Below, in pieces: positions 53,132 through 56,145 of a DNA stretch of 64,000 bases (positions are counted from its first letter, which is position 1; each line of letters opens with the position of its first letter). The stretch comes from Candidatus Latescibacterota bacterium (lineage in GTDB: Bacteria > Latescibacterota > UBA2968 > UBA8231), in contig OY730476.1 of assembly GCA_963422735.1 (NCBI GenBank), positions 1,312,001-1,376,000 on the forward strand. The letters run 5' to 3'. The notes beneath the pieces were generated by a model, which worked only from the letters and a program-made list of their open reading frames with translations, did no database searches and was not told the DNA's origin. The translations under genes were made by a program, and so were the position numbers.

Positions 53132-54223
53132 TCAAAAATCCATCGCCGGCGGTCCCGCATAGCCGATGCTTTGCCATCCGGCGACATCGCCGCCTTTGAA
53201 GCGATAGGGGTGCGGATACAGCTTGAGCGTGCGGTCTGCAAAAGGCAGAGACACCCGCTCGTGCTCCCGATGGGCCGAGCGCACCAAGGCAATGGCCACT
53301 TCGAGCGAGTGGCGGTAATCGTCGCCGCTGCTATACGGCTCGGTGCCAGCTTGATGGGCGCGTATCAGGCGCTCGACCGTATAGGCAAAAGCATCCGCCG
53401 CCTGCCGCTCCAAAAAATCGGGATACACCACAGAAGCGGCCGCGCCAGTCCCTTCGATCAACGCGGGCCGCGGGCGTGCTAAAAAGACCTGCCCGCGCTC
53501 GCCAGCGACTGAAACAAAGGTCGGCACGCGGCCATCCGGCTCAGGTGCGACGATCTCGCAGACGATGCCGCCGCTCAGGCCCAAGCGACCGTACGCGGGC
53601 ACATCTCCCTCCTCTGTAGGAGTGCCTTCCGCCACGTACCCCGGCTCCGCCGGCAAGGTATAGCCTTCCACCCACTCCACATCCATCCCGGTGAGGATGC
53701 GCAGAGCGGCGATTTGTACGCAACCTCCGCCCGACACCTCGGTCGGCAGCCCGCCCGGGATCGCTGCTGCCGTCAGCCGACCAATATGCCCCTGCCTCAC
53801 CCACTCGACCACCTCGGGCATATGCGGCGTCGCCCATCCGGCTTGAGCGCAGCCGAACAAGGTGTCGTGCTCCCGGCAGATGCGGATCATTTCGTCGGCC
53901 TCGCGTAGCTGGTGAGAAATCGGCTTTTCGCAGGAAACGACCCGCACGCCAGCGCGGGCGCAGGTAGTGACGCAGGGATAGTTTTGGCTCACTGGGACGA
54001 CTGCGGAGACAATGTCGGGCACTTCGGCCGCCAAGAGGCCATCGAGATCGTCGTACACCTTCTCCACGCCGTAGCGCCGGGCAATGGCGTCCCGCCGCTT
54101 TCTGGCGCGATCGACGAGGCCGACAATCGCGCAGTTGGGATGGGCCGCGTAGGCGCGCGTGTAGTAGCGACCCCACGTGCCGGCCGCGCCGACGACGGCC
54201 ACCCGGTATTGCTTATTGGTCAT
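53132..54223 (-). CDS. Gfo/Idh/MocA family oxidoreductase
   Basis: AVVGAAG, PDIVS, CEKPI. Confidence 0.87.
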   Translation of the reverse strand: MTNKQYRVAVVGAAGTWGRYYTRAYAAHPNCAIVGLVDRARKRRDAIARRYGVEKVYDDLDGLLAAEVPDIVSAVVPVSQNYPCVTTCARAGVRVVSCEKPISHQLREADEMIRICREHDTLFGCAQAGWATPHMPEVVEWVRQGHIGRLTAAAIPGGLPTEVSGGGCVQIAALRILTGMDVEWVEGYTLPAEPGYVAEGTPTEEGDVPAYGRLGLSGGIVCEIVAPEPDGRVPTFVSVAGERGQVFLARPRPALIEGTGAAASVVYPDFLERQAADAFAYTVERLIRAHQAGTEPYSSGDDYRHSLEVAIALVRSAHREHERVSLPFADRTLKLYPHPYRFKGGDVAGWQSIGYAGPPAMDF

Positions 54224-54243
54224 GGTATCTGTCAGCCTCCTGA

Positions 54244-54272
54244 TTGACGGGGATAGAGGTCGCGGTTATATT
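54244..54272 (+). promoter_or_regulatory. Sigma70-type promoter of the tyrS leader
   Basis: TTGACG (54244-54249), 17 nt, TATATT (54267-54272). Confidence 0.75.
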
Positions 54273-54291
54273 TTTGCGCGGAGAATGAATG

Positions 54292-54354
54292 ATGCAAACC
54301 CTACGCACGGATCGCCGCTACCTCTATTATACCGCGTTTCATAGAGAGGGGTAG
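54292..54354 (+). CDS. Putative tyrS attenuator leader peptide MQTLRTDRRYLYYTAFHREG
   Basis: GGAGA RBS at 54280-54284, ATG 54292 (alternative 54289), Tyr codons TAC-CTC-TAT-TAT at 54319-54330, TAG 54352-54354. Confidence 0.78.
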   Translation: MQTLRTDRRYLYYTAFHREG

Positions 54355-54386
54355 TGCGTCCGCTGAATCGTCTAAACCGCGTGTAC

Positions 54387-54413
54387 AAGCCCCTGTAATC
54401 AGGGGCTTTTTTT
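54387..54413 (+). terminator. Intrinsic terminator (attenuator) upstream of tyrS
   Basis: AAGCCCCTG-TAAT-CAGGGGC followed by T7, ending 19 nt before the tyrS ATG. Confidence 0.9.
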
Positions 54414-54432
54414 ATGCCCATAAGGACCAGCA

Positions 54433-55680
54433 ATGAACATCATACCCGATCTTCAATTTCGCGGCTTGATCTACCAAGTCACCGATCTCGACGGCCTCGC
54501 CGAGCGCCTCGCCGCCGGTCCGATCGCGCTCTACAATGGCTTCGACCCGACCGCCGACAGCCTGACGGTGGGCAACCTCGTGCCGATCCTGCTCCTGCGC
54601 CGCTTCCAGCTCGCCGGCCACAAGATCATTGCCTTGGCCGGCGGCGGCACTGGTCTGATCGGCGATCCAGGGGGCAAGACCGAGGAGCGTCAGCTCAATG
54701 CCACCGACGTCGTGGCCGAGTGGACTCAGCAGGTCAAAGCCCAGCTAGAGCGCTTCCTCGAATTCGACGGCCCCAACCCCGCGACCATGGTCGATAATTA
54801 CGACTGGCTCGGCCAACTCGCAGCCATCGACTTTATGCGCACGGTCGGCAAGCACTTTCCCGTCCCCTACATGCTGGCCAAGGACTCGGTCGCCTCGCGC
54901 CTAGCAACGGGTATCTCCTATACCGAGTTCAGCTACATGGTGCTACAGGCGTATGACTTCTTGGTCCTCAACGAAAAATACGGCTGCGAGTTGCAGACCG
55001 GCGGCTCTGACCAGTGGGGCAATATCACCGCCGGCACCGATCTGATCCGCCGCTCCGCAGGTAGCCGGGCCTTTGGCCTGACCTGCCCGCTAGTGACCAA
55101 AGCAGACGGCACCAAATTCGGCAAGACCGAGGCGGGCACGGTCTGGCTCGACGCCGCTAAGACCTCGGCCTACCAGTTTTACCAGTTCTGGATCAACGCC
55201 GAGGACCAGAAGGTTGTCGACTACCTGAAAACGTACACCTTCCTAGAGCAGGACGAGATCCTCCAGCTCGCCCAAACCGTCCGCAACCAGCCCGAACGAC
55301 GCGAGGCCCAGCGCACCCTCGCCGCCGAAGTAACGGCCCTAGTACATGGAGCCGATGCGACGCGCCGGGCCGAAAACATCTCGCACGCACTTTTTTACGG
55401 AGTGTTTCAGGACCTATCCGAGGACGAAATCCTCGAAGGCTTTGACGACGTGCCAACGCACGCGATGGGTCAGGAGGAACTGGGGCTGGTCGATTTGCTC
55501 GTCGCGGCCGGCGTCTCTCCCTCCAAGCGCCAAGCCCGCCAAGATGTGCAAAACGGCTCAATATATATCAACGGCGAGCGCTGCACGGACATGGCGCGGA
55601 GAATGCAGCACCGACATGGCCTACACGGCAAATACCTGATCGTGCGCCGGGGCAAGAAGCAGTACACCCTCGTCTGCTAG
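54433..55680 (+). CDS. tyrS: Tyrosine--tRNA ligase
   Basis: GFDPTADSL, IGDPGG, SYTEFSY..LQAYDF, GGSDQWGNI, KFGKT, C-terminal S4 domain. Confidence 0.98.
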   Translation: MNIIPDLQFRGLIYQVTDLDGLAERLAAGPIALYNGFDPTADSLTVGNLVPILLLRRFQLAGHKIIALAGGGTGLIGDPGGKTEERQLNATDVVAEWTQQVKAQLERFLEFDGPNPATMVDNYDWLGQLAAIDFMRTVGKHFPVPYMLAKDSVASRLATGISYTEFSYMVLQAYDFLVLNEKYGCELQTGGSDQWGNITAGTDLIRRSAGSRAFGLTCPLVTKADGTKFGKTEAGTVWLDAAKTSAYQFYQFWINAEDQKVVDYLKTYTFLEQDEILQLAQTVRNQPERREAQRTLAAEVTALVHGADATRRAENISHALFYGVFQDLSEDEILEGFDDVPTHAMGQEELGLVDLLVAAGVSPSKRQARQDVQNGSIYINGERCTDMARRMQHRHGLHGKYLIVRRGKKQYTLVC

Positions 55681-56145
55681 CTACTCAGGTCGCAAGAGCA
55701 CTAGAAATTGCGCAAAGTCCCGCGCAAAATCGCGCTGGATTCGCGCTGCTTTAGCCGCCAAGTCCGCCACCTTATCGGGATCCAAATCTGCGGCGTACGC
55801 GTGGCGGAACAGATGGCGGAAGCGCCGCAATTCATCTAGGTCGGAAGCGGTTTCTGCAGACAGGAGCGCCGGGCGGATGCCTTGGATTTCTAGCTGCATT
55901 CGCCTAATCATATCCGCGTGATACCTTGCTTCGTCAATTTGGTTCTCAAAGAACCGCGCTACTTCCTCAAACAACTGCTCAAACGCGCCGTAGAGATTGT
56001 GGAGCTGGTATCCCATGCTGTCCACCCCTTCGGCACTATGGGCAAACGTGCTCAGGCGTTCCTCGATGCGACCGCCGATGCGGCTGATGTCCCGAGAACG
56101 CGTGCGCAACTCCGCTTCGAGGACTGCGAAGGCCCCTTTATTCAT
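55681..56145 (-). CDS. HEPN-domain RNase toxin (HepT-like)
   Basis: LHNLY...E, RFRHLFRHAY (Rx4H-type); overlaps the MNT stop. Confidence 0.88.
   Translation of the reverse strand: MNKGAFAVLEAELRTRSRDISRIGGRIEERLSTFAHSAEGVDSMGYQLHNLYGAFEQLFEEVARFFENQIDEARYHADMIRRMQLEIQGIRPALLSAETASDLDELRRFRHLFRHAYAADLDPDKVADLAAKAARIQRDFARDFAQFLVLLRPE

Follow-up and report, generated by a model that had tools for sequence, protein, structure and literature searches.

A putative tyrosine-codon leader-peptide attenuator upstream of tyrS in a Candidatus Latescibacterota genome

The 64,000 nucleotide (nt) stretch of Candidatus Latescibacterota DNA analyzed here (the window; contig OY730476.1, positions 1,312,001 to 1,376,000) contains a tyrS gene preceded by a compact leader that, judged by its sequence and by folding models, is very likely a ribosome-mediated (leader-peptide) transcription attenuator setting tyrS expression by the supply of Tyr-tRNA(Tyr). 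Coordinates are those of the window, and features lie on the + strand unless stated otherwise. The regulated gene, tyrS (54433–55680), codes for a tyrosine--tRNA ligase (TIGR00234, 404.5 bits against a cut-off of 113.8, E = 5.2e-121). Its leader begins with a sigma-70-type promoter (54244–54272) matching 10 of 12 consensus positions, in which TTGACG (54244–54249) and TATATT (54267–54272) are separated by 17 nt. A Shine-Dalgarno sequence, GGAGA (54280–54284), lies 7 nt before the ATG at 54292 of an upstream open reading frame (uORF) of 20 codons, MQTLRTDRRYLYYTAFHREG, which ends with TAG at 54352–54354. The presumed regulatory codons are TAC CTC TAT TAT (Tyr-Leu-Tyr-Tyr, 54319–54330), with Tyr at 54319–54321, 54325–54327 and 54328–54330; Tyr thus makes up 15% of the uORF codons, compared with 3.2% of the codons in the long ORFs of the genome, and this, together with the conservation in relatives described below, exceeds what chance would give. 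An intrinsic terminator follows (54387–54413), consisting of a 9-bp stem, a TAAT loop and a T7 tract, and it ends 19 nt before the tyrS ATG at 54433; the stem-loop itself, AAGCCCCTG / TAAT / CAGGGGCTT, occupies 54387–54408 and the T-run 54407–54413. An earlier note on this DNA, made from the sequence alone, had placed the promoter, the ribosome binding site, the uORF with three Tyr codons and the terminator at these positions, and all of them are present.

The leader contains three mutually exclusive helices, and separate folds reproduce the pairings that the note had assigned to them. Segment 1 (54308–54330), the 5' strand of helix 1:2, holds the Tyr codons; it folds and is weakly conserved across genera. 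Segment 2 (54341–54362) contains a G-run and the stop codon, and pairs either with segment 1 or, via 54347–54358, with segment 3 (54382–54394), which is the 3' strand of the antiterminator and overlaps the 5' arm of the terminator. The G-run, situated at the uORF stop and ~19 nt downstream of the last Tyr codon in the window, is complementary to a C-run in that 5' arm. Helix 1:2 (54308–54330 with 54341–54362) is strong in the window, at -21.7 kcal/mol. Helix 2:3 (54347–54358 with 54382–54394) folds at -16.3 kcal/mol, or -15.5 kcal/mol as a duplex, and is as stable as terminator stem 3:4 at -16.6 kcal/mol; the instability that would have spoken against an antiterminator is not seen. The fold of the leader as a whole is weakly unusual (z = -1.93; 8 of 200 shuffles are as good). 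A further long-range helix, proposed by RNAalifold from the genus alignment between the Shine-Dalgarno region and TTTATCGTCTC, was not adopted; in L017 and L018, where both sides of the adjacent GCGCGG/CCGCGT pairing have changed, the changes appear uncompensated by eye.

These parts suggest the following course of events. Transcription would begin a few bases past TATATT, and a ribosome would load on the 20-codon leader ORF. With plentiful charged tRNA(Tyr), the ribosome would reach the TAG at 54352 and cover the G-run segment (54347–54358), so that the terminator (54387–54413) could form and most transcripts would end 19 nt before tyrS. With scarce charged tRNA(Tyr), the ribosome would stall at 54319–54330, melt helix 1:2 and leave the G-run segment free to pair with 54382–54394 before the 3' arm of the terminator is made, and RNA polymerase would read into tyrS. 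Absent any translation, helix 1:2 would hold segment 2 and termination would prevail. A shortage of charged tRNA(Tyr) would most likely turn tyrS up. Translation of the uORF, stalling at its Tyr codons, a kinetic choice between helices and tyrosine-responsive read-through are the steps that we infer.

This logic, in which a Tyr stall permits read-through and a ribosome at the stop codon permits termination, had been put forward in the earlier note, and it gains support from conservation, from the stability of helix 2:3 and from the position of the antiterminator strand. The partner that best fits the terminator 5' arm on its upstream side falls between -12 and +18 nt from the uORF stop codon in 29 of 29 sequences. 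Since the partner sits at the uORF stop, a terminating ribosome would cover it. In an alignment of 50 sequences, two G's of the G-run are almost invariant; once the terminator region and T-tract are set aside, the start codon's A is the sole other position conserved to this degree.

The distribution of the unit was assessed with a fixed rule, which demands a terminator together with an ATG or GTG ORF of 8–40 codons that ends between 80 nt before and 3 nt inside the terminator 5' arm. The source genome is a single contig of 4.95 Mb (95% complete by marker genes, 59.5% G+C), and its close relatives in public records are metagenome-assembled genomes labelled Candidatus Latescibacterota, with a few labelled Gemmatimonadetes. 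The order consists of one family with 76 species-level genomes in 18 genera, and a TyrS match is found in 69 of them. Within the same genus, a homologous, Tyr-containing uORF and a terminator precede tyrS at 26 of 26 loci (an initial 23 and three more), including L022, which contains N's and shows two Tyr codons. In the other 17 genera the rule is passed by 26 of 39 loci, and 20 of the 39 have at least two Tyr codons. The unit is thus present by rule in 13 of 18 genera, and in two more (g14 and g18) by eye; the conserved uORF and Tyr codons for which the earlier note proposed to test relatives are found upstream of tyrS throughout the genus and in at least 12 further genera. No unit is seen in the regions upstream of tyrS in g10, g11 and g15. 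The 13 loci that fail the rule are of several kinds: L116 is cut by the contig end; L134 has a terminator and conserved Tyr-Arg-Tyr codons without an ATG or GTG start; in L130, L133, L135, L136, L139 and L147 a uORF is followed by a T-run hairpin too irregular for the strict hairpin rule; and L132, L137, L141, L148 and L149 show nothing convincing. At the 52 loci that pass, the uORF stop and the terminator are 25–45 nt apart.

Beyond the order, the unit is absent from all 27 loci sampled (7 + 20, drawn from four other families of the phylum). Two of these families, f2 and f4, belong to the same class, and in them (L025–L030, L213, L215–L223) tyrS begins a few bases past the stop codon of the upstream gene, with no leader and no terminator. 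That upstream gene, with the C-terminus GVE.EPG.KDH.K, is one that we tentatively take to be trpF-like, and the tyrS arrangement in these families is a different one, possibly operon-based.

Features around the uORF are conserved as well. Across the genus alignment the promoter hexamers are invariant or almost so, and a promoter scoring at least 9/12 lies upstream of the uORF at 28 of 33 family loci scanned. In the window, a scan of 53800–56000 (2.2 kb) finds the TTGACG/TATATT pair as the sole promoter-like site, where shuffles average 0.7. The GGAG of the leader Shine-Dalgarno sequence is kept in the main clade of the genus; a second in-frame ATG at 54289, 5' of the leader start at 54292, is not conserved. 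The Shine-Dalgarno sequence of tyrS itself, AAGGA (54422–54426), lies 3' of the terminator and is unpaired in the whole-leader fold, so it is not sequestered. On the other side of the leader is a divergent gene on the minus strand (53132–54223) with weak family matches to Gfo/Idh/MocA-type oxidoreductases. Because this gene is on the opposite strand, the terminator before tyrS cannot belong to it. The leader is also kept in L004, L012, L017 and L018, where the upstream gene differs; the unit moves with tyrS and not with its neighbor.

The leader peptides cannot be aligned between genera, as illustrated by MTRTIAYRYYYYASGG, MQTSHTYQYYYSHRHLGGC, MKNCYRYYHLEISGG and MALKSYYYRLEKQYGG, and what they retain is YY, YYY or Y-R-Y. 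The constraint is on the Tyr codons, not on the peptide. In the genus the Tyr count ranges from 2 to 6 and is altered in whole-codon steps of 3 nt, with TAT and TAC interchanging synonymously; across the order, uORFs contain 1–6 Tyr codons in frame. Amino-acid enrichment was measured by picking, for each amino acid, the best-positioned ORF that maximizes that amino acid (52 loci, 13 genera). By this measure leaders hold a mean of 3.23 Tyr, compared with 0.22 Phe, 0.41 Asn, 0.53 Cys and 0.76 His, which likewise have two codons each. The leaders favor the rarer Tyr codon of the genome: they contain 106 TAT and 56 TAC, where the long ORFs of the genome contain 9,142 TAT and 17,537 TAC and tyrS itself 3 TAT and 13 TAC.

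The same measurements bear on whether the leader is read in another frame, in which TAT TAT TAT would supply Leu (CUA/UUA) or Ile codons and a different amino acid would be sensed. An overlapping ORF at 54285–54344 (+), MNDANPTHGSPLPLLYRVS, reads the Tyr codons as Leu and is open in some relatives. Its ATG at 54285 abuts the Shine-Dalgarno sequence with zero spacing, the best-positioned ORFs average only 0.99 Leu and 0.72 Ile, which other frames would encode, against 3.23 Tyr, and the downstream gene is tyrS. The overlapping ORF is judged to be unused on the grounds of its missing Shine-Dalgarno spacing and the low Leu and Ile content across genera, and sensing through another frame is scarcely credible.

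In several genera the Tyr codons lie in a recurring (T/C)CGATA(T/C) core, which reads Arg(CGA)-Tyr. The source genome uses CGA comparatively seldom for Arg (4,621 times among about 60,400 codons). The core may help the ribosome to stall or may reflect a constraint on the RNA itself. The uORF ATG in genera g21 and g22 lies exactly 7 nt past the -10 hexamer at 11 of 11 loci (L129–L131, L135, L136, L138, L139, L142–L145), which matches the expectation for a uORF translated from a leaderless transcript. Most g21 and g22 leaders hold a single Tyr codon within R-R-Y-R-R.

Preservation of the CGAUAY core at the nucleotide level in many genera, and the resemblance of the triplet repeats to protein-binding repeats, could instead mean that a protein or a tRNA binds the UAY repeats as RNA, much as in TRAP or T-box regulation, and controls the terminator with no need for uORF translation. 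The coding properties of the leader make this very unlikely. The start codon, frame and stop are kept across genera; the number of Tyr codons shifts by whole codons; and TAY triplets number 162 in the uORF frame versus 28 and 31 in the other two (52 loci), a contrast somewhat inflated by picking the frame by its Tyr count. The spacing of the g21 and g22 ATG behind the -10 hexamer is that expected of a translated leaderless ORF. A T-box model finds nothing at the locus or elsewhere in the genome, and the leader, ~135 nt from its start to the terminator, has no room for a stem I. A translated Tyr-codon leader is the reading that these features favor.

The terminator shows compensatory changes. 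In the 50-sequence alignment, 95.1% of cells pair in the terminator stem, compared with 31–70% in slid controls, and none of 500 shuffles matches the covariation score. Two pairs carry changes in both partners (GC/AU, 12 sequences; UA/CG, 13 sequences), and the covariation is equally seen when the alignment is reduced to 25 sequences from other genera and one from the same genus. For the alternative helices the full alignment also gives a signal: in helix 2:3, 76.2% of cells pair versus 36–61% when slid, and 0 of 500 shuffles match the score, while helix 1:2 is moderately supported, with 74.4% of cells pairing versus 38–53%.

Folding was also modelled with a ribosome. In a truncated model, applied to 29 sequences, the transcript is cut before the terminator 3' arm, everything up to the front edge of the ribosome is masked, and the probability that the 5' arm is paired serves as the readout. 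The means are 0.32 with no ribosome, 0.88 with a ribosome on the Tyr codons and 0.40 with a ribosome at the stop, and 20 of the 29 sequences pass all three thresholds. The window sequence gives 0.25, 0.84 and 0.27, respectively. When only the ribosome footprint is masked, again in transcripts cut before the 3' arm, most members of the genus give the same three-state behavior.

Two further synthetase genes of the source genome, both outside the window, have leaders of similar design. First, thrS (TIGR00418, 677.7 bits) is preceded at G000:C1:2167440-2167680 (L151:40-280) by promoter-like hexamers, a 35-codon uORF and a terminator. The uORF ends in ...PTPTTATTTTTLCDG, with 8 Thr in 10 codons, and the terminator reads CCCCGCTGTC...GACAGCGGGG followed by T5. 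An ATG uORF with at least four Thr within 8 codons (usually 7–8), and then a T-run 23–36 nt before thrS, is present at 28 of 28 genus loci, and the number of Thr codons varies. Second, a uORF with a run of Asn and Asp codons lies upstream of the second aspS paralogue (PRK00476, 791.4 bits) at G000:C1:4005920-4006100 (L152:120-300). In the source genome the run is HNDNDNNP, and relatives show NNDDNN or QNNNN; downstream lies a hairpin that is imperfect and carries a T7 tract. Such a uORF is seen at 19 of 21 loci, the other two being cut or not interpretable. The Asn bias of this leader may reflect a role of this AspRS in Asn-tRNA synthesis. The aspS leader was found by inspecting regions upstream of synthetase genes, a survey that covered the other synthetases partly; a genome-wide scan for amino-acid-run uORFs before terminators gave mostly noise except for tyrS and thrS. 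The three independent matches between codon and synthetase (Tyr/tyrS, Thr/thrS and Asn-Asp/aspS) are hard to explain by chance.

Several observations weigh against attenuation of tyrS by its leader peptide as described above. The first group concerns the alternative helices. The full-alignment signal for helix 2:3 stems largely from the 26 same-genus sequences. The helix is mainly an invariant GGGG:CCCC core without clean covariation, and in the reduced alignment with a single same-genus sequence it pairs in 69.2% of cells, which exceeds neither the 71.4% at a slide of -1 nor the shuffles. When segments are swapped among 18 representatives, native 2:3 pairs average -16.05 kcal/mol versus -15.09 kcal/mol for swapped ones, and 1514 of 20,000 permutations are as good, which is not significant; the corresponding test of helix 1:2 is not significant either (6660 of 20,000 permutations). 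Helix 1:2 is moreover missing in L021, L023, L050 and L051, where the free RNA already forms the antiterminator. Helix covariation, by which the earlier note proposed to judge its model, is therefore found in the terminator, with its two covarying pairs, and is lacking in helices 1:2 and 2:3 under the stricter controls. Apart from compensatory changes in the alternative helices, the defining features of classical attenuators that can be tested in sequence appear to be present here.

The second group concerns folding. At equilibrium, the full leader forms the terminator in every modelled state, with values of 0.94–1.0 in nearly all sequences. Because equilibrium always gives the terminator, the choice between helices must be kinetic, which is the usual assumption, as in the classical systems. 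With footprint-only masking, the window gives 0.76, 0.31 and 0.33 at its three Tyr codons versus 0.25 for free RNA, and is well paired for the first Tyr only; at the second and third, segment 2 is drawn into competing pairs with the beginning of the leader. On constrained folding with a ribosome, the antiterminator forms only on Tyr stalling when everything up to the front edge is masked, and in the window forms well only at the first Tyr when the footprint alone is masked. The equilibrium preference for the terminator would also suit a constitutive or vestigial terminator accompanied by an ORF that arose by chance and regulates nothing. An essential single-copy gene with its own dedicated promoter would, however, be silenced by a strong terminator placed 19 nt in front of it, and the unit has been kept over 13–15 genera while the surrounding sequence diverged; a terminator without a regulatory function is thus highly improbable.

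The third group concerns the specificity for tyrosine. Arg is as enriched in the leaders as Tyr (mean 3.46 versus 3.23), and g20 and most g22 loci contain one Tyr codon only. It is conceivable that the uORF and terminator report general translation capacity, through coupling of the leading ribosome to RNA polymerase, and that Tyr is incidental or one contributor, perhaps with Arg as another. The single Tyr of several genera in R-R-Y-R-R (g22), and the comparatively rare CGA that directly precedes Tyr in several genera, fit this explanation. Enrichment of Arg is nevertheless expected, since Arg has six mostly G+C-rich codons in a 59.5% G+C genome, whereas Tyr has two A+T-rich codons that make up 3.2% of all codons, and the amino acid fits the downstream synthetase in three separate cases in the same genome. 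A sensor of general capacity is unlikely on this evidence, if somewhat less so than the other alternatives, and a specific response to Tyr-tRNA(Tyr) is preferred.

The transcript data are uninformative about termination. A search of sequencing runs turned up 20 with matches, six of them labelled RNA and each with small shares, and four metatranscriptome runs were compared. The matches are assembled contigs of relatives (90–95% identity in three runs and 95–99% in one); assembled contigs carry no information on where transcripts begin and end or on how abundant they are, and such libraries may also contain DNA.

If leader-peptide attenuation operates at tyrS, the three cognate leaders invite a broader proposal, which is tentative and rather doubtful at present: that this order, T-box-free in the genome examined, runs its synthetase homeostasis on cognate leader-peptide attenuators, and that two genera have reduced their tyrS sensor to a uORF, probably leaderless, whose one Tyr lies in a fixed Arg-Tyr-Arg context (CGN-UAY-CGN). 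If this were true, one codon in the right context would suffice for amino-acid sensing. The tyrS leader would provide an annotation rule for the genomes of this order and a compact natural sensor of tyrosine charging. The loci differ in the number of Tyr codons (1 to 6), in whether helix 1:2 is present and in whether the uORF has a 5' untranslated leader, and would form a natural series on the number of regulatory codons needed. Classical attenuator logic would gain another amino acid and another gene, and this in a phylum known from metagenomes alone.

In E. coli, the trpL, hisL and pheL attenuators control amino-acid biosynthesis operons, and the pheM leader of pheST is a case of leader-peptide attenuation of an aminoacyl-tRNA synthetase operon. 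Control of tyrS, by comparison, is textbook T-box territory. To our knowledge, leader-peptide control of synthetase genes is experimentally established essentially for pheST. The proposed tyrS attenuator shares with trpL, hisL and pheL its four segments, which are predicted to form a 1:2 pause or anti-antiterminator helix, a 2:3 antiterminator and a 3:4 terminator, as well as a stop codon placed for the ribosome to cover segment 2. It differs from them in that the gene regulated is a synthetase gene and not a biosynthetic operon, and in that helix 1:2, strong in the window, is not conserved across the order. With pheM and pheST it shares a short ORF rich in cognate codons, followed by a terminator with a predicted alternative antiterminator, in control of the cognate synthetase. 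The amino acid is Tyr and not Phe, however, the gene is tyrS, the host belongs to an uncultured order of Candidatus Latescibacterota, and there is no sequence relationship. No Rfam family reaches threshold at the locus; the nearest is Phe_leader (RF01859), with 26.4 bits versus a gathering threshold of 55, aligned mostly over the terminator.

Compared with the tyrS T-box of Bacillus subtilis and other Firmicutes, the gene, the signal (tRNA(Tyr) charging) and the output (terminator versus antiterminator) are the same. The T-box differs in that no translation is involved: its specifier codon and T-box sequence sense uncharged tRNA directly. As the earlier note had stated, there is no T-box here: the model RF00230 has no match at E up to 10 in 53800–54900 and, genome-wide, 0 matches at E <= 0.001; of 14 control genomes searched in the same way, 5 gave a signal. 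The note's author knew of no characterized Tyr-codon leader for tyrS, and no description of one was found in the literature searched, which omits most subscription journals.

The closest precedents outside the proteobacteria are computational. In the available text of Seliverstov et al. 2005 (PMC1262725), pheST in gamma-proteobacteria is cited as the classical example, classical attenuators are predicted before trpS2 and leuS in Streptomyces, and tyrosine is mentioned solely as T-box controlled. The Streptomyces predictions, as given there, resemble the tyrS leader in combining a cognate leader peptide with a terminator before a synthetase gene, outside the proteobacteria and by comparative genomics, and they differ in concerning other amino acids and another phylum. 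Set beside these systems, the tyrS leader is very probably a leader-peptide attenuator of the classical type with a new specificity, that of Tyr and tyrS.

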